DNA from: a virus | Virus genome (UHGV): UHGV-0393364 | Strand: one strand, 5' to 3' | Length of the DNA: 16,419 nucleotides | Shown: positions 2,271 to 16,419 of the stretch, one piece after another | Numbering within the stretch: the stretch's first letter is position 1 | Layout of the letters: each line of letters begins with the position of its first letter | Program-made: the position numbers and the translations under genes | Notes under the pieces: model-generated | Database searches by the model: none | Told to the model about the DNA's origin: nothing | What the model saw: the letters and a program-made list of their open reading frames with translations, nothing else

Positions 2271-3292
2271 CCGTCCAGAAGAAGATATTTTCACTGACTG
2301 CTATGTCGCAAAAATCCAGCAATATGACAGCAAAGTCTGGCATTAATACAGCAGATACAAGCAAAGCTTATCATTTTATGGTGGTAGGAGCGGATGCCTT
2401 AACTATGTCAGAAATTACGGTCGATGGTGTTAGCGTTGAGAAGGTCAGCGGCTGCGCCAGAGAATTTCTGGTCGTAGATGACCTGTTCTGCTCGCGTAGT
2501 GACTCCACAAAAATCTTCGTCCGCACGCGCGACGTTAACGAAATGAGCGCGATGTACTGTGCCTCTGGTTCTTCCAATAGTGAGTTTTCGGAGTCCATAA
2601 AAAAGAGCTTGCCGTTATGCGGCAACACGGTTTATGGTTATAAGGCACCTCATAAAACGGGTGCCGGGATTAGGACCCCGCAGGCAATCGAGGCGATACA
2701 TGACGCGCCAGCGTCTTTTTTTGTATCGGCGCACACGCACACCTTATCAATGGTGGGCTGTATGGGGCTGACTTCGGTCAGGCTGGTTTCCTTGATTGCC
2801 AGTAGTCCTAACCCTGTACAGTCCACCGCCAGCGAGCTTAGGACCTCCGGCGGTGGCTATAAACCATCAATCAAGGAGGCTGCCACATGCTGGCTACTAC
2901 CCCTACCCAAAAACCGCAATTTATCTGGATTATCGCCGCAGTTCGCCGCGATTGCCCGACAATTACCGCCAAAATTCATCATATTGCTGCCGAGTCTGAA
3001 CGCGATGCTCGCCGTTCTCTGGTGCGCGATCACATCTGCTTTTTTGCTGGTCGTATCCGCATGGAGGTGGCACATGATTAAAACCTACGATGTGCATATG
3101 GATCCCCTCGAACGCACAAGCCAGATCATCACACTGACAGAAGTGATTAACGACATTCTGGTGAGCAACTCTCCCTCACGAGACGAAAGACTGAAGGCGT
3201 TACTCGCGATATTGGATCTCGCCGTTCGTGACGTTCATTTCCTGCTGGAAGGTGGACAAATGCCATGCAAAACGGGGGCAACCAATGAATAA
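2264..3292 (+). CDS. Questionable long ORF (342 codons); the 5' part may be a real S/T/C-rich protein or an open-frame artefact, and the last 72 codons are a separately supported small gene
   Basis: GGAGG 7 nt upstream of ATG 2264 and a coupled start (AAATGCTAA) argue for a real start. However the frame reads through the strongly supported out-of-frame gene 2887-3081, and the 5' product is compositionally odd (very Ser/Thr/Cys-rich). Treated as uncertain. Confidence 0.25.
2887..3081 (+). CDS. Small protein, 64 aa, possibly Icd-like (host cell division inhibitor-like)
   Basis: Strong SD AAGGAGG 7 nt upstream of ATG 2887; product [64 protein letters not shown]. The pattern FIW..AAVRR ... RDH..FFAGR resembles my recollection of Icd-like small proteins of enterobacterial prophages; that assignment is from memory only. 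Confidence 0.6.
   Translation: MLATTPTQKPQFIWIIAAVRRDCPTITAKIHHIAAESERDARRSLVRDHICFFAGRIRMEVAHD
3074..3292 (+). CDS. Small hypothetical protein, 72 aa
   Basis: GGAGG at 3064-3068, 5 nt upstream of ATG 3074, which overlaps the stop of 2887-3081 (ATGATTAA); product [72 protein letters not shown] has balanced composition. Confidence 0.6.
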   Translation: MIKTYDVHMDPLERTSQIITLTEVINDILVSNSPSRDERLKALLAILDLAVRDVHFLLEGGQMPCKTGATNE

Positions 3293-3957: not shown

Positions 3958-4552
3958 TTTCTTAACTTTCCATGCAGAAGCAACGCCTGACGGCGTAAAC
4001 ATCATGTACCGCAGCAACGATGGCATGACAGAACGCGTTGAGACCGTCTCATATATTGATGCCGTAAATCGTCTGGATGCCGGGGATTATGACGATAAAC
4101 CAGATGAAGGCATGTTTATACATCTCGCTATTGCCAGTGGCGGCAACCAGGGATATTTCGATTACACATCACAGCATCACGTGATTATGTGGCGCTGGCT
4201 GATAGCAACAGCATTCATCAATGAAATGAGAAAGGAAAACGGCACTGTCAGCATCATTGATGATACTGGCAATCCTTCCGAAGTGGCTGTTTATTCCAAC
4301 GGCATCGTCGCCATGCCGCTGTATCCAGTAGCAGAGCGCCTCGCTATGGCAAACAACATTGAGGGCGCGATGATAGAACGTTTTGGCATCGAGTCTGGCA
4401 CAGAACGCGCCATCATTTTCTACAGAGCCATGATGGATGTGGAACAAGGAGCACTGACTCCATTTGGTCGTGAAACGCTTGCTGAACTTCACAACAGCTT
4501 TATAGCTGAACTGAATGAAAACGGCATGCCAGCGGAACCAGTGACGCACTGA
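3950..4552 (+). CDS. Hypothetical protein, 200 aa
   Basis: Start chosen at ATG 3950 (MNNFLTFHAEATPDGVNIMYRSNDG...), which overlaps the stop of the upstream gene (ATGAATAA); the track's longer 3845 start would lie inside the upstream gene in another frame. Confidence 0.65.
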   Translation: MNNFLTFHAEATPDGVNIMYRSNDGMTERVETVSYIDAVNRLDAGDYDDKPDEGMFIHLAIASGGNQGYFDYTSQHHVIMWRWLIATAFINEMRKENGTVSIIDDTGNPSEVAVYSNGIVAMPLYPVAERLAMANNIEGAMIERFGIESGTERAIIFYRAMMDVEQGALTPFGRETLAELHNSFIAELNENGMPAEPVTH

Positions 4553-4562
4553 GGATGGAGCC

Positions 4563-4904
4563 ATGATTACTAAAAATTTCCGACTGAATGCGCTGGCAAA
4601 TAAGTATGCGTCAGCACTGTATAACCACATTACCTCCACCAGCGGCGGGGACTATTTCATGGTTGATGCGGACGGCGAGGCCGTCCGTGTGGAAATCGTC
4701 AATGGAGTAAAAGGCGTTCGCAGCCTGATCGATAGCTACACACTGGCAGCCATGAAAGTGTTCTACCCGCAGTGGGAAACCGTGGGGATAGAGCTTCTTG
4801 ATCGTTGCGTCACTAAGGACGGATTGACTGACGTCGGGCGTGAGATATGGCAAAGCATGGTTAATGACATGGGCGCAACTGTAGCGGGAGGTTCTCATGC
4901 GTGA
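4563..4904 (+). CDS. Hypothetical protein, 113 aa
   Basis: GAGGA 7 nt upstream of ATG 4563; product MITKNFRLNALANKYASALYNHITSTSGGDYFMVDADGEAVRVEIVNG... Confidence 0.65.
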   Translation: MITKNFRLNALANKYASALYNHITSTSGGDYFMVDADGEAVRVEIVNGVKGVRSLIDSYTLAAMKVFYPQWETVGIELLDRCVTKDGLTDVGREIWQSMVNDMGATVAGGSHA

Positions 4905-5268
4905 AAATGCAGAAATGGCGCTTAGCTCCGCAATCGGAGAGCAGGTGGCAAAGATTGCTGGCGCTGTGTGGATTCATAACCTTCATTCTACTGGTGAAGA
5001 GAAAATGGCAATTCAGACGCCAGAGGGACGCACCATTACTACATCTCTGAAGCCGTCAGATGTTTGTGATCTGATTTGCGCATTCATGTACCCAGCAATG
5101 AGGACTGTCCACGGCGATAAGTGGAAACTTGCGACAACCGCTGAATTTGATATGTGGCTAAACAATGATGGCATGCTGACTGATTACGGAATAACCAAGT
5201 GGCAGATGCTGGTTAGCCATATCGCAAACGCTATAGACCACGTGGGGTACGGTGATGCGAAACATTGA
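4897..5268 (+). CDS. Hypothetical protein, 123 aa
   Basis: GGGAGG 8 nt upstream of ATG 4897, which overlaps the upstream stop (ATGCGTGA). Confidence 0.65.
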   Translation: MRENAEMALSSAIGEQVAKIAGAVWIHNLHSTGEEKMAIQTPEGRTITTSLKPSDVCDLICAFMYPAMRTVHGDKWKLATTAEFDMWLNNDGMLTDYGITKWQMLVSHIANAIDHVGYGDAKH

Positions 5269-8011
5269 TCTTATCCGTCAGGTTATCAGTGCGTCTGAAA
5301 ACAACTGGCCTCATGTGCTGGGCTGCCTGAACATAAATGTCCCTGACTCTCCGCGCCGTCATGCTCCCTGCCCTGCATGTGGGGGCAAAGATCGATTCCG
5401 GTTCGATGACAACGGGCGCGGTAGCTTCATCTGTAATCAGTGCGGCGCTGGTGATGGGCTGGATTTAATTAAACGCGTAAATAACTGCGACACAACAGAG
5501 GCGGCGCTTCTTGCCGCTGATGTTCTGGGTATTGATTACCGGACAACGGAAACACCAGAAGCCACCAGCCAGAAACGGGAACAACTGGAAACCGAGCGCC
5601 AGCGACGCGAACAGGAGCGCCTGAAAAGGGCAGAGAAGGACGAACAACAAAGACGGGATACGTTTTCCCGTCAGTTTGATGACATGCGCAGAAAGGCTGT
5701 AAACGGTAAATCTGATTATCTGGTTGCGAAAGGGGTAGGTGATTTTACATTCCCCGTGTTGCCCGATGGATCTCTGTTGCTGGCGCTGGTGGATAAATCC
5801 GGCGCAGTCACAGCAGCACAGACTATTACCTCACATGGTGAAAAAAGACTCCTGACAGGTTCAGCAAAACGGGGAGCATATCACGCCATAAACGCACCAG
5901 AAACAACACAGAGCATCTTAATCGCAGAAGGGCTGGCAACGGCATTATCTGCCCATTTAATTCGTCCAGAGGCGCTGACAGTGGCGGCGATTGATGCCGG
6001 GAACCTGTTATATGTCGCCCAGGTACTGCGGGATAAATATCCTTCAGCACAAATCATCATTGCTGCGGATAACGACCACAGCGAAGGAAGACAAAACACG
6101 GGGAGAATAGCAGCAGAAAAAGCAGCTTTATCTGTTTCTGGATGGGTGGCATTACCCCCGACAGATCACAAAGCAGACTGGAATGATTACCACCAAAAAC
6201 ACGGCATTAAATGCGCCACAGAAGCGTTCAATAAGTCAATGTACCAACCACAGGGTAATGGCGTGAAACAGGAGCCACAGACCATTGAGGGAAGCGATTT
6301 TAAGGTTATGGATACCGACCCACTGAAACCAAGAATAGAAAGCCGCGAGGATGGTATTTATTGGGTATCTCCGAGAGCTGACAGCCAGAGTGGAGAAATC
6401 ATCAATAACGAAAGCTGGTTATGTTCTCCGTTAAGCGTTATCGGTACTGGCAGAGACGATAAAGACCAGTATCTCATTCTTCGCTGGCTGTCGTTTGGTT
6501 CTGAAACGCCGACAACCGCTGCCATTCCACTGGCTGATATTGGTGAACGTGAAGGATGGCGCACACTTAAAGCTGGTGGGGTAAATGTCACGACCAAAAG
6601 CAGCCTCAGAGCAATACTGGCAGACTGGCTACAACGCAGTGGCTCTCGTGAATTGTGGCGTGTTGCTCATGCCACTGGCTGGCAATGCGGAGCGTACATC
6701 ATGCCTGATGGGGAAATCATCGGAACACCTGAAAATCCTGTGCTGTTCAGCGGGAGAAGCTCAGCCGCAGCCGGATATACCGTCTCAGGGAGCGCGAAAA
6801 GCTGGCGTGATAACGTGGCGCGTCTGGCCTTTGGTAACTATTCAATGATGACCGGGATCGGCGCAGCACTGGCAGCGCCATTGATTGGGCTGGTGGGCGC
6901 TGACGGGTTCGGCATTCATTTCTATGAGCAGTCGAGCGCGGGTAAGACCACCACGGCAAACGTGGCGAGCAGCTTATACGGCAACCCTGATTTACTGCGG
7001 CTGACGTGGTACGGAACCGCGCTGGGGCTGGCAAATGAGGCCGCCGCCCACAATGACGGATTAATGCCGCTTGATGAAGTTGGTCAGGGCGCTGATCCTG
7101 TCAGCGTTTCACAGTCTGCCTATGCGTTATTTAACGGTGTAGGGAAACTGCAAGGCGCTAAAGATGGTGGAAACCGGGATCTAAAACGCTGGCGTACAGT
7201 GGCAATCAGCACCGGAGAAATGGATTTAGAAACATTTATCGCTACTTCCGGGCGAAAAACCAAAGCCGGGCAACTGGTGCGACTGCTGAATATTCCGTTG
7301 AGTAAAGCAGTACGCTTTCACGATTACCAGAACGGAAAACAGCACGCAGACGCACTGAAAGACGCTTACCAGCATCACCACGGCGCAGCCGGGCGTGAGT
7401 GGATTAAATGGCTGGCAGACCACCAGCAACAGGCTATTAAAACTGTTCGTGACTGCGAAAGCAGATGGAGAAGCCTGATCCCATCCGATTATGGTGAGCA
7501 GGTTCACCGTGTAGCCGCGCGATTTGCCATTCTGGAGGCAGCATTGCTGTTAGGCGAAGTTGTAACAGGCTGGGATGCTCAGACATGCCGTGATGCGATA
7601 CAGCACAGCTATAACGCATGGTTGCGCGAGTTCGGCACAGGTAACAAAGAACATCAGCAGATTATTGAACAAACGGAGGCATTTCTTAATGCCTATGGGC
7701 TTAGCCGTTTTGCACCATTTCCATACAGCCCGGCAGATTTGCCCATCAAAGATTTAGCCGGATACCGTCAGCGTGGAGAACATGACGAAAGCCCAATGAT
7801 TTTCTACACATTCCCGGCCACATTTGAAAAGGAGATCGCATGTGGTTTCAACGCAAAACAGTTTGCTGAAGTGTTGAAAAAAGCCGGGATGCTAACCCCA
7901 CCAAACAGCGGTCGTGGATACCAAAGAAAATCACCACGTATTCAGGGACGACAAATAAACGTTTATGTACTCAATTACCAGCCAGGAGATTATAACTCAT
8001 CTGAAGAATGA
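5255..8011 (+). CDS. P4-alpha-like DNA primase / replication initiator (zinc ribbon, charged linker, TOPRIM, C-terminal NTPase-like domain)
   Basis: N-terminal C-x2-C...C-x2-C zinc ribbon (HAPCPACGGKDRFRFDDNGRGSFICNQCGAGDG); highly charged Q/E/R-rich segment (QKREQLETERQRREQERLKRAEKDEQQRRD); TOPRIM-like segment with conserved Glu (ILIAEGLATALS) and DxD (IIIAADNDHSEG); C-terminal region with a P-loop-like motif (EQSSAGKTTTANV). Start is GTG 5252 or ATG 5255 and overlaps the 3' end of the upstream gene. Followed within 25 bp by an iteron array. Confidence 0.9.
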   Translation: MRNIDLIRQVISASENNWPHVLGCLNINVPDSPRRHAPCPACGGKDRFRFDDNGRGSFICNQCGAGDGLDLIKRVNNCDTTEAALLAADVLGIDYRTTETPEATSQKREQLETERQRREQERLKRAEKDEQQRRDTFSRQFDDMRRKAVNGKSDYLVAKGVGDFTFPVLPDGSLLLALVDKSGAVTAAQTITSHGEKRLLTGSAKRGAYHAINAPETTQSILIAEGLATALSAHLIRPEALTVAAIDAGNLLYVAQVLRDKYPSAQIIIAADNDHSEGRQNTGRIAAEKAALSVSGWVALPPTDHKADWNDYHQKHGIKCATEAFNKSMYQPQGNGVKQEPQTIEGSDFKVMDTDPLKPRIESREDGIYWVSPRADSQSGEIINNESWLCSPLSVIGTGRDDKDQYLILRWLSFGSETPTTAAIPLADIGEREGWRTLKAGGVNVTTKSSLRAILADWLQRSGSRELWRVAHATGWQCGAYIMPDGEIIGTPENPVLFSGRSSAAAGYTVSGSAKSWRDNVARLAFGNYSMMTGIGAALAAPLIGLVGADGFGIHFYEQSSAGKTTTANVASSLYGNPDLLRLTWYGTALGLANEAAAHNDGLMPLDEVGQGADPVSVSQSAYALFNGVGKLQGAKDGGNRDLKRWRTVAISTGEMDLETFIATSGRKTKAGQLVRLLNIPLSKAVRFHDYQNGKQHADALKDAYQHHHGAAGREWIKWLADHQQQAIKTVRDCESRWRSLIPSDYGEQVHRVAARFAILEAALLLGEVVTGWDAQTCRDAIQHSYNAWLREFGTGNKEHQQIIEQTEAFLNAYGLSRFAPFPYSPADLPIKDLAGYRQRGEHDESPMIFYTFPATFEKEIACGFNAKQFAEVLKKAGMLTPPNSGRGYQRKSPRIQGRQINVYVLNYQPGDYNSSEE

Positions 8012-8036
8012 GCTTCTTCATGTGCGTAGAAAAGGT

Positions 8037-8147
8037 GTTGGTTCAGTTGGTTCAGTTGGTTCAATTTGCAAAGAGTATTGTTTTGTAAGGATTTTATTCT
8101 TTTTATTGAACCAACACTGAACCAACAACACGGTATTTTGAACCAAC
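8037..8147. repeat. Origin-like iteron array: 3 tandem GTTGGTTCA, a 43-bp AT-rich spacer, then 3 inverted copies (TGAACCAAC) at helical spacing
   Basis: GTTGGTTCA at 8037-8045, 8046-8054, 8055-8063; AT-rich 8064-8106; TGAACCAAC at 8107-8115, 8118-8126, 8139-8147. Sits immediately 3' of the primase gene, as for satellite/plasmid origins bound by their initiator. Confidence 0.8.
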
Positions 8148-14672: not shown

Positions 14673-15650
14673 ATGATTGCCGCAAAGCCTCATAAGGACT
14701 ATCACGAATTGCTAGGATTGCTACTTGAACGTGGCATGATTATCAATGATCGAAATCGTGCGATACGTAAGCTGTCGCAGGTTGGATATTATCGATTGTC
14801 AGGTTTTTGGTACCCTTCAAGAATTATTGCGACAACAGATAAAGGTCTTTCGTACAGAACAGACCGATTTCTTGCTGGTACCAGTTTCGAGAAGACGTAC
14901 GATCTATATCTTTTTGACAAAAAACTGCGTCTTTTGATGATTGATGCTATCGAAAGAATAGAGATTCATGTTCGTTCAGTCATCGCGCATGAGGTTGGTC
15001 GCAATGATCCACTTGCCTACATGTCATCAAAATACATTAATCCAAAATTCTCATCTGCCTTCGAGCATTGGGTGTATAAGCAAAAAGTAAAATTAGACGA
15101 AAGCAGAGATGACTGTATTGAATGGCATCGAAGCCAAGGCAAGGAGATTCCATTTTGGGTGGCGGTGGAGACATGGGATTTTGGTCAGATGTCTAAATAT
15201 TATGCGATGCTTAATGGTCATATGCAGGGGAAAATTATACGTCGTTTTGGCATTGATAATAAGCAGACATTTGCAAAATGGTTGAAGTGCCTTAATCTCA
15301 TAAGGAATCGTTGCGCTCACCATTCCAGAATATGGAATAGAAAGCATCCCCGAGTTCCAGTACCGGATAATGAATACTTTGACGGACTTAATCTCCATCC
15401 AGAGAGTTGCGAGAGGATTTTTAGCGCGATCTGTATTATCTGGTACTTAGTTAAACGACTTGGTCCGGGATCAACATGGCTTCGGCAAATTGCAGACCTT
15501 ATTGACTCTAAACCAAATGTTCCCGGATGTGGATATGATTCAATGGGTTTACCTGCTAAAGGATTCCCACGAGAGAGATTCTCTCAGGACTTAGGTTTTG
15601 TTATCGCCGACAACGACCCTGTAGCTGAAGGGCGGAAAGGGAGCGATTGA
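14673..15650 (+). CDS. Abortive infection protein, Abi_2 family (AbiD/AbiF-like), 325 aa
   Basis: KPHKDYHELLGLLLERGMII...YYRLSGFWYP, FEKTYDLYLFDKKLRLLMIDAIERIEIHVRSVIAHEV, FWVAVETWDFGQMSKYY and LKCLNLIRNRCAHHSRIWNRK match the remembered Abi_2 family pattern, notably the IRN-x-CAHH-x-R-x-WN motif. Start set at ATG 14673 (MIAAKPHKDY...); the track's GTG 14628 start would add a hydrophobic 15-aa extension. Confidence 0.85.
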   Translation: MIAAKPHKDYHELLGLLLERGMIINDRNRAIRKLSQVGYYRLSGFWYPSRIIATTDKGLSYRTDRFLAGTSFEKTYDLYLFDKKLRLLMIDAIERIEIHVRSVIAHEVGRNDPLAYMSSKYINPKFSSAFEHWVYKQKVKLDESRDDCIEWHRSQGKEIPFWVAVETWDFGQMSKYYAMLNGHMQGKIIRRFGIDNKQTFAKWLKCLNLIRNRCAHHSRIWNRKHPRVPVPDNEYFDGLNLHPESCERIFSAICIIWYLVKRLGPGSTWLRQIADLIDSKPNVPGCGYDSMGLPAKGFPRERFSQDLGFVIADNDPVAEGRKGSD

Positions 15651-15679
15651 GCGATAAATATCATTTATACACTGATCAA

Positions 15680-16108
15680 TTACTGAAGCAGCGTATTGAT
15701 TCTTTTAATATTGTTACCCTGACGCTTCCACGCGCTGTAAATGTCTTTATCCCACGCTTTACCAGCTTTTGTTTGGTAGCCTGCTTCATTGAGCCGTTCA
15801 GCTATCACACGCCCATTATCAAATCCCTGTCGGATGGTATCGGCAATGATCTTTATAACTGCCGTTTCGTTATATGGCTTTGGTGGGATGTTCGGCTTTC
15901 CGGCAATAAGCGATGCTGCGGCTTTTTCCATGCGCTCCACCAGCCCAAGCATTCGTGAATCAATAGACTTTTCCGGCTGTCCCAGCTTCATGCGAATCGC
16001 ATCAACAAGCCAGGAGGTTTTATCCCCTCCAGAAGCGAGAACAGACCGATTAAACTCATCCTGCAATTCAGATGGGATGCGGAACGCGATCAGATTAGAT
16101 TTGCTCAT
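15680..16108 (-). CDS. Putative DNA-binding regulator: N-terminal ribbon-helix-helix-like domain plus C-terminal resolvase-type HTH-like segment, about 142 aa
   Basis: N-terminus MSKSNLIAFRIPSELQDEFNRSVLASGGDKTSWLVDAIRMKL looks like a RHH (strand, then two helices); C-terminal GRVIAERLNEAGYQTKAGKAWDKDIYSAWKRQ resembles recombinase/resolvase-type HTH segments. Start taken at the second Met (16108); track start is 16120. Convergent with the Abi gene; iteron cluster 2 and an operator-like inverted repeat lie upstream. Confidence 0.7.
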   Translation of the reverse strand: MSKSNLIAFRIPSELQDEFNRSVLASGGDKTSWLVDAIRMKLGQPEKSIDSRMLGLVERMEKAAASLIAGKPNIPPKPYNETAVIKIIADTIRQGFDNGRVIAERLNEAGYQTKAGKAWDKDIYSAWKRQGNNIKRINTLLQ

Positions 16109-16222
16109 TGCAAAGACCATATCAGTGAGTAATATCCATACAGTATACCACTGTATAACACTGTTATACGCTCAAATATCAGTCAGAAAATAACGGACCA
16201 ATCACAAATCTATCGCTGTGTT

Positions 16223-16343
16223 GTTGGTTCAGAGCTGGGCTGTGTTGGTTCAAAATGAGTTGATGTTGGTTCAATATTTTAGAAAAAACACAATAAAAAC
16301 AACGCTCTTTACAAATTGAACCAACTGAACCAACTGAACCAAC
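16223..16343. repeat. Second iteron array, a mirror-image (inverted) copy of the 8037-8147 origin-like site
   Basis: GTTGGTTCA at 16223-16231, 16244-16252, 16265-16273 (21-bp spacing); AT-rich 16274-16316; TGAACCAAC in tandem at 16317-16325, 16326-16334, 16335-16343. Its reverse complement has the same architecture as cluster 1, and flanking spacer sequence is also similar (ctctttgcaaattgaacc vs ctctttacaaattgaacc). Confidence 0.8.
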
Positions 16344-16419
16344 ACCTTTTTGCTTATCTATATAATCTGACCGTAGATTTTGAGGGACTTTAGTAGACGT
16401 CAAAAGACGAACGGGGCTT

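Follow-up and report, generated by a model that had tools for sequence, protein, structure and literature searches.

Why would a mobile island carry what reads as its replication origin twice, in mirror image, on either side of its accessory genes? The question is raised by a 16,419-bp stretch of viral DNA (UHGV virus genome UHGV-0393364; hereafter "the window," meaning the whole stretch that was analyzed), which is a phage-inducible chromosomal island (PICI) of the Gram-negative, EcCIMP1 type. An earlier reading, made from the sequence alone (the sequence-only reading), had pointed to a mirror-image copy of the island's origin and had offered three explanations for it: a second cis-acting replication site like crr of P4, the origin of a second and oppositely oriented satellite, or a target for inversion or exchange of the genes in between. 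Our comparisons suggest that this copy, which we designate H2, probably forms a mirror-symmetric replication origin together with a second half (H1) that follows the island's primase-helicase gene, H2 being the distal half of the two.

The word TTGGTTCA occurs in 12 exact copies in the window, compared to 0.70 expected (none of 200 shuffles reached 12), and all 12 copies are confined to two clusters. When the clusters are delimited with the 9-mer iteron GTTGGTTCA/TGAACCAAC, H1 spans positions 8037 to 8147 and H2 spans positions 16223 to 16343, the same coordinates at which the second array had been placed from the sequence alone. H1 begins 25 bp past the primase-helicase stop. Its outer set (8037 to 8063, plus strand) consists of three contiguous GTTGGTTCA iterons at 8037, 8046, and 8055, has a 9-bp period, and is invariant across genera. 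The AT-rich spacer that follows (8064 to 8106; 42 bp, 79% AT) is presumed to be the unwinding region, by analogy with the origins of PICIs and of Staphylococcus aureus pathogenicity islands (SaPIs) (PMC6092414, PMC9371898). The inner set (8107 to 8147, minus strand) has three opposed iterons (TGAACCAAC on the plus strand) at 8107, 8118, and 8139, with spacings of 11 and 21 bp.

H2 follows the same plan in reverse. Its inner set (16223 to 16273, plus strand) has three GTTGGTTCA iterons at 16223, 16244, and 16265, phased at 21 bp, or two helical turns. It is followed by an AT-rich spacer (16274 to 16316; 43 bp, 79% AT, compared to 53% AT for the window as a whole) and by an outer set (16317 to 16343, minus strand) of three contiguous iterons (TGAACCAAC on the plus strand) at 16317, 16326, and 16335, whose 9-bp period mirrors that of 8037 to 8063. 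Beyond the outer set lies a conserved flank, CCTTTTTGCTTATCTATATAATCTGA (16344 to 16370), which runs straight into the gene perC in other genomes. The alignment of H1 with the reverse complement of H2 has 81% column identity, and spacer sequence is shared in part, which bears out the earlier description of the same components in reverse orientation with a similar spacer. H1 is 10 bp shorter than H2, since two iterons that are 21 bp apart in H2 are only 11 bp apart in H1. The longest and strongest inverted repeat in the window pairs positions 8030 to 8084 with positions 16296 to 16350 (55 nt, 95% complementary). An Rfam scan revealed no RNA family at H1 or H2, and a tRNA scan found none in the window.

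Origins of PICIs and SaPIs have at least two opposed iterons on each side of an AT-rich region, carry the iterons of their own Rep protein, and lie immediately 3′ of the rep gene. H2 has three iterons on each side and the same 9-mer as H1 (an orphan H2, discussed below, is the exception), and it starts 8.2 kb downstream of the primase stop. Judged by sequence, each half has the makeup of a PICI/SaPI origin unit, and H2 departs from that definition only in its position.

Both arrays lie within an island of demonstrated mobility. As expected of a PICI, the integrase gene precedes alpA: the 3′ end of int occupies positions 1 to 132 and AlpA is encoded at 615 to 818 (PF05930, E = 7e−20), with rightward transcription. 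The genes left of the primase include the integrase 3′ end, AlpA, AntA, and Ash-family genes, and most genes of the window are on the plus strand. The primase-helicase gene at 5252 to 8011, with H1 and its 79% AT spacer directly behind it, agrees with the rep-origin arrangement of PICIs (PMC6092414). Near-identical islands reside at tRNA-Thr in many Escherichia coli genomes, with int followed by alpA and with a PerC-family gene after H2. An island of the same type, EcCIMP1 of E. coli MP1, is a 19,963-bp PICI that excises, circularizes, and is transduced by the P22-like helper phage Kapi1, and its ends were mapped by sequencing of the attP junction (PMC11773190). The EcCIMP1 locus has the same backbone, with H1 after the primase gene and H2 beside perC, 8.4 kb apart and both within the mapped ends.

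Contiguous and split origins in related islands

The comparison set comprised 80 loci that encode relatives of the primase, with one genome per species. At each locus, we searched de novo for a repeated word just past the primase stop and then for other clusters of that word. In 23 of the loci (primase 44 to 81% identical), both halves are contiguous and occupy 250 to 320 bp directly after the primase stop (for example, loci L038, L036, L041, L025, L040, L030, L053, and L013). Each of these contiguous origins opens with tight iterons, which are followed by about 50 bp of AT-rich DNA and by spaced iterons; past a central stretch come more spaced iterons, another spacer, and again tight iterons. 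The tight triplets are outermost and inverted. The mirror is clean, with two AT-rich spacers, in Morganella, Pseudomonas lundensis, Pluralibacter, Lelliottia, and Scandinavium. The contiguous H2 of Morganella aligns with H2 of the window, including CTTTACAAATTGAACC and the TTATATA flank. Because relatives carry both halves contiguously, we interpret H1 and H2, on this homology, as two halves of one ancestral origin architecture and not as an origin plus a stray copy. The halves are adjacent in most relatives, and in the lineage of the window about 8 kb of accessory genes separate them. Comparison of the arrays across related islands, which the sequence-only reading had proposed, thus finds the same two halves again and again, either contiguous or split.

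Between the contiguous halves, irrespective of the iteron word, sits a motif with the core CCTGGCTGGCA. In the window, this central motif (CACCTGGCTGGCATC, 8176 to 8190) stays with H1; it may bind a host factor, serve in priming, or belong to a promoter. Since the conserved stretch on the H1 side extends to about 8190, the cargo proper occupies approximately positions 8191 to 16222; the arrays do bracket it, as had been proposed, with its start at this point instead of at 8064. Breakpoints of the E. coli modules fall at about 8191 to 8205, just right of the central motif, which is also where the accessory genes are inserted. A T-rich stretch followed by CTGGCTGGCA(G) forms the center of most contiguous origins (loci L038, L025, L029, L030, L013, L016, L021, and L083), and the same motif is found in the origin of a DUF5906 replicase (locus L097, about 10826 to 10840).

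The split form was found in six genera, with gaps of 1.9 to 9 kb and with the tight sets always outermost. The gaps measure 1.9 to 8.4 kb in E. coli, 8.3 kb in Leclercia, 6.7 kb in Cedecea, 5.8 kb in Lonsdalea, 8.6 kb in Chimaeribacter, and 8.8 kb in Pantoea. What fills them differs between islands. The accessory module of the window (8191 to 16222) encodes a 53-aa open reading frame (ORF), P22-type ejection proteins, a 139-aa protein, an Abi_2 protein, and, on the minus strand, the protein of orf146. At E. coli locus L005, the split holds no more than orf146 and a 57-aa ORF. The cargo of Cedecea includes a Beta_protein and an SLT-domain protein; that of Leclercia an SSB, a ProQ/FinO protein, and a tape-measure-like protein; and that of Chimaeribacter a 1,136-aa tape-measure-like protein. 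The gene perC is inside the split in Lonsdalea, Chimaeribacter, and Pantoea and outside it in E. coli. Two Lonsdalea islands, one with a split and one with a contiguous origin, have the same DNA after H2. Among complete E. coli genomes, the primase-H1 junction is present in 364 and the H2-perC junction in 384, which are similar counts.

Conservation within H2 is selective. In an alignment of H2 from seven genera, mean pairwise identity is 96% in the iterons and 69% in the AT-rich spacer, compared to 49% between the spaced iterons and 52% outside the array. This pattern bears the signature of binding sites and phasing kept under selection, as opposed to a decaying relic.

The two halves also vary together. 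We found eight iteron words across the lineages (TGAACCAAC, TGAGACAAC, TAACCCGTT, TGAACCGAC, TGGTACAAC, TGACACACT, TTATCCCAA, and AAACCGACC), and in every lineage one word is common to both halves of its own origin. The presumptive reader of these words is the product of the primase-helicase gene (5252 to 8011, plus strand), a 919-aa initiator that we call Pri-Rep (Pfam Zn_Ribbon_Prim, Toprim_3, and DUF927). Its N-terminal primase half is 33% identical to the P4 alpha protein (E = 9e−42), and its helicase part matches the self-loading helicase SaPI Rep (PDB 8tch, E = 1e−11). Primases associated with TGAACCAAC and with TGAGACAAC are approximately 80% identical and differ consistently at just 8 alignment columns, 5 of which fall within residues 892 to 897 (window 7925 to 7942; YQRKSPRI with TGAACCAAC versus YQGRV-RE with TGAGACAAC). 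These two iteron words therefore track a six-residue C-terminal patch, RKSPRI versus GRV-RE. In SaPI Rep, a C-terminal winged-helix domain reads the iterons (PMC9371898). The patch lies beyond the part of Pri-Rep that aligns with SaPI Rep and thus corresponds in position to that domain. We suggest that residues 892 to 897 are likely a determinant of iteron specificity in the primase.

The role of the distal array

How might such an origin work? Upon induction by a helper phage, AlpA would switch on the island operon. Pri-Rep, which combines a P4-like primase and a SaPI-Rep-like self-loading helicase in one protein, is predicted to bind the iterons of both units through its C-terminal region; the AT-rich spacers would then melt, and helicase rings would load. 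Because the two units are in opposite orientation, the excised circle of approximately 20 kb would present two opposite loading sites, 8.2 kb apart across the cargo and roughly 11 to 12 kb apart across the core genes. H1 and H2 would either fire independently or cooperate by looping, as P4 ori and crr do. Among the explanations offered earlier, a second cis site like P4 crr comes closest to this evidence, with the amendment that the two arrays are better described as halves of one compound origin. H2 itself is predicted to be an initiator-binding, origin-type array that resembles P4 ori and crr in layout; both its binding by Pri-Rep and its firing are inferred.

We also entertain, tentatively and with more doubt than confidence, the idea that the split is a selected design, in which a sizeable group of enterobacterial PICIs deliberately nests its accessory module inside the origin. 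The cargo might then be copied first, through divergent or convergent firing, or a Pri-Rep loop might gate initiation. If so, cargo gene dosage would rise early after induction, and the loop would be a two-site requirement like that of P4 ori and crr that arose with a SaPI-type helicase. Under the same conjecture, the genes found inside the origin of the unrelated DUF5906 replicase of locus L097, after the same motif, would mark a general insertion hotspot.

Several observations weigh against the interpretation of H2 as half of a working origin. In Enterobacter, Kosakonia, Erwinia, Pantoea, and a Lonsdalea metagenome-assembled genome, a variant occurs in which the second half has two of its inner iterons flipped and, except in Erwinia, a GC-rich second spacer. 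Given the GC-rich spacer and flipped inner iterons of many contiguous relatives, the second half is not always a full origin unit. The second half is incomplete at loci L016, L023, and L026, and no H2 is visible within 10 kb at L034 and L035, so that islands may be able to dispense with the distal half. In the published description of the origin of E. coli PICIs, only two iteron sets around one AT-rich region are mentioned (PMC6092414).

A complication is posed by E. coli MDR_56 (L097, NZ_CP019903.1), where a Zn-ribbon/Toprim/DUF5906 protein of the P4-alpha-like kind has taken the place of the DUF927 primase and H1. The swapped replication module (8318 to 11920) comes with an iteron of its own, CTGTACCAC, and with a separate two-part origin, in which the tight pairs on the outside are inverted (10701/10710 and 11895/11904) and two genes lie between them, just after a CTGGCTGGC motif. 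Judged by sequence, L097 provides an independent second example of a split origin that encloses genes. An intact TGAACCAAC H2 (21412 to 21532) nevertheless persists beside perC in L097 as an orphan. In an evenly spaced sample of 40 of the 555 matching records, 8 rows (H117 to H124) match only the cargo-left segment, as L097 does. Islands of the L097 type indicate that H2 can persist without a cognate initiator in cis, although the E. coli H2 copies are nearly identical and too similar to judge whether orphans decay. As far as its sequence tells, H2 is an array of the origin type that belongs to the DUF927 Pri-Rep and is conserved in the presence of that protein; to call it "required" would go beyond the data.

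The same facts can be read in other ways. Handcuffing by iterons is known at P1 incA and between R6K origins, and H2 could likewise be a control element that Pri-Rep binds without initiating there, either titrating the protein, handcuffing with H1, or coupling its occupancy to transcription of perC or orf146. Its surroundings would suit this role, since only 22 bp separate the tight iterons from a flank that contains TATAAT and runs directly into perC (384 E. coli genomes), and orf146, with operator-like repeats, adjoins H2 on its other side; the lack of an AT-rich spacer in the second half of many contiguous relatives also fits a site for binding only. However, H2 in the window and in all split islands keeps its 43-bp, 79% AT spacer and the exact geometry of H1, neither of which pure titration would need; a promoter scan of positions 15600 to 16419 gave no sigma-70-like site; and a satellite that replicates in a burst has little obvious use for negative copy control. 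We therefore regard a purely regulatory H2 as unlikely. We give still less weight to the view that H2 is a functionless, hitchhiking leftover, stranded when cargo moved into a compound origin or when a half-origin moved with the orf146-perC end module. The orphan H2 that outlived the swap to a DUF5906 replicase is what this view predicts, and module boundaries do coincide with the margin of H1 and the central motif; the near-identity of the E. coli copies, moreover, implies little time for decay. It is harder to reconcile with the 96% conservation of the six iterons and their phasing over seven genera against 49% between iterons, with the retention of all six iterons, or nearly all, by every split island in six genera, and with the concerted change of word in both halves across eight specificities.

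The remaining two readings both treat the mirror symmetry as a clue to rearrangement or to a second element, and neither fares well. That the inverted arrays serve to flip the 8-kb cargo as a switch is highly improbable. At 55 nt and 95% complementarity, the inverted repeat has the length to allow inversion by RecA now and then, and the right end of the window, 22 bp outside H2, does bear an unexplained rearrangement. Yet the junction expected from recombination within the 55-nt arms (scored as present when at least 80% covered) occurs in 0 of 549 matching E. coli genomes, whereas an equally long stretch across the normal junction is covered in 329. Every locus examined has its genes between the arrays in the same order and orientation, annotations of related islands include no invertase and none was found among the 10 large ORFs scanned, and in most relatives the arrays are adjacent, with nothing to invert. 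Of the earlier proposal of recombination targets, only exchange is borne out: the DNA between the halves or next to them is clearly exchanged, in a manner that resembles the usual shuffling of modules rather than a dedicated switch. As to a second, oppositely oriented satellite to the right, the window taken alone could suggest it, with H2 oriented as if a minus-strand primase gene ended near 16360. We place practically no credence in it. Homology to H1 ends 8 bp past the iterons, leaving no primase 3′ end; in related genomes, H2 is followed by a plus-strand perC and not by a minus-strand primase; and the window ends in 55 bases that derive from upstream of the integrase gene and not from a primase gene. 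Because both arrays lie inside the mapped ends of EcCIMP1, the flanks and boundaries together refute this reading. We thus retain the two-part origin as the most probable account of H2.

Gene content and boundaries of the island

The ejection-protein homologues of the accessory module are DUF2824/gp14-like, gp7, gp20, and gp16-like proteins of P22. By definition, a Gram-negative PICI has no structural or lysis genes of a phage (PMC6092414); we found no capsid, tail, or lysis genes, and the island does carry these four homologues. The ejection genes (8774 to 13432) are nested between the halves, and EcCIMP1, which is representative of the E. coli islands, uses the P22-like helper Kapi1. Tape-measure-like proteins take the place of ejection proteins in Leclercia (L045, 16198 to 18912) and Chimaeribacter (L028, 14632 to 18042). 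The 139-aa protein, described in the sequence-only reading as a membrane protein, has no family match and only weak, sub-threshold matches to membrane families. Upstream of the Abi_2 gene, the intergenic region 13988 to 14299 contains three direct copies of GACCAGTACGCGCGCG-like 20-mers (at 13995, 14047, and 14280).

The gene orf146 (15680 to 16120, minus strand) adjoins H2 in most split-origin islands, is missing from EcCIMP1, and also occurs 2 to 9 kb downstream of contiguous origins in other genera. Its product has no convincing Pfam or PHROG assignment. The operator-like repeats ACAGTATAC, ACTGTATAAC, and ACTGTTATAC are located at about 16139 to 16170, between the orf146 start and H2.

In the left half of the window, positions 2645 to 2833 (plus strand) match two Rfam families at the gathering level, isrK (2645 to 2721, 63 bits) and C4 antisense RNA (2746 to 2833, 80 bits). 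The matches fall within the ORF called as Ash, downstream of AntA, and the stretch is an immunity-like module of the P1/P7 c4/icd/ant type. It is the sole part of the window's left half that matches Stx phages.

At loci L098, L101, and L107, the attL of the island is merely the 3′ 46 bp of tRNA-Thr, and another prophage or integrase lies upstream, which indicates tandem elements at one tRNA-Thr site. No attL/attR direct repeats of the tRNA-Thr 3′ end of at least 12 bp were found in L001.

The right end of the window is anomalous and lies outside the origin. Positions 16365 to 16419 (minus strand) match exactly, in reverse complement, the arm-type region that lies upstream of the integrase gene of the island itself (L001, 222 to 276). 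The junction has a 6-bp microhomology (ATCTGA) with the H2 flank, at the point where perC starts in every other genome. Neither IMG/VR nor the JGI metagenome contigs contain the exact 30-mer that spans the junction, and no complete E. coli genome covers it. Contigs with the AlpA allele of the window have normal or tandem att flanks and not this breakpoint. The match is 55 bp long, which is also a k-mer size in common use by assemblers. The junction would fit either an assembly chimera or an inversion of the entire segment from int to H2.

Comparison with known origins

PICI origins have so far been described as a single array right after the rep gene. The origins of EcCICFT073, SaPIbov1, and SaPI1 share with the window the opposed iteron sets around an AT-rich stretch directly 3′ of the pri-rep gene (PMC6092414, PMC9371898), and their initiator is likewise a self-loading helicase, with SaPI Rep homologous to the window's Pri-Rep. 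In EcCICFT073, whose replicase is of a different type, the origin region validated by experiment likewise forms a compound array, of approximately 230 bp with inverted outer iteron pairs (PMC6092414). Unlike these origins, the window has a second complete mirror unit 8.2 kb away, with accessory genes nested in between. We found no description of a split or mirror-duplicated PICI origin in the searchable literature, and the EcCIMP1 paper does not discuss the replication origin (PMC11773190). Our comparisons suggest that the enterobacterial PICI origin is usually a larger, mirror-symmetric structure, and that the lineage in which it is split by kilobases is widespread: about 7% of complete E. 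coli genomes carry it, and EcCIMP1, whose mobility was demonstrated by experiment, belongs to it. For annotation, the arrays offer a sequence landmark that delimits a cargo hotspot in these satellites, and they also call for caution, as one island can hold two origin-like arrays without being two elements. The short C-terminal patch of the primase is, in addition, pinpointed as the likely determinant of iteron specificity.

Initiator-binding clusters that are separated yet act together are known from other replicons. In Bacillus subtilis and Helicobacter pylori, two clusters of DnaA boxes separated by dnaA form one bipartite oriC. The resemblance lies in two initiator-binding clusters separated by coding DNA; the differences are that the initiator is DnaA, that a single gene intervenes, that only one sub-origin unwinds, and that the element is not mobile. 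In R6K (alpha, gamma, and beta) and P1 (incC and incA), iteron clusters that lie apart in cis share one initiator, through which they are looped or handcuffed. Those initiators are of the Rep/pi type and lack a helicase, and the distal clusters are enhancers or negative controllers instead of mirror copies with an AT-rich spacer.

The closest parallel in layout is P4, whose replication has been found by experiment to need both ori and crr. As in P4, the same iteron is present at two separate sites in the window, one of them just downstream of the primase-helicase gene. In the P4 GenBank record, crr is annotated as "cis required region" and lies at 4291 to 4590, 46 bp from the end of the alpha gene at 4636; the second array, 4.7 kb off, consists of the type 1 repeats in ori, at 9310 to 9413 (GenBank annotation and a scan with TGTTCACC). 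Each crr unit has two 9-bp-spaced iterons, a spacer, and inverted iterons. However, crr consists of a pair of 120-bp direct repeats that ori does not mirror, in contrast to the mirror copies of the window. The helicase and origin-binding part of P4 alpha is of the D5_N/DUF5906/Pox_D5 kind, as opposed to the SaPI-Rep-like DUF927 of the window, and only the primase N-terminal halves are homologous. The likeness to P4 on one side and to SaPI Rep on the other raises the question of how self-loading Rep helicases use paired sites, whether as two independent origins or through P4-like looping.

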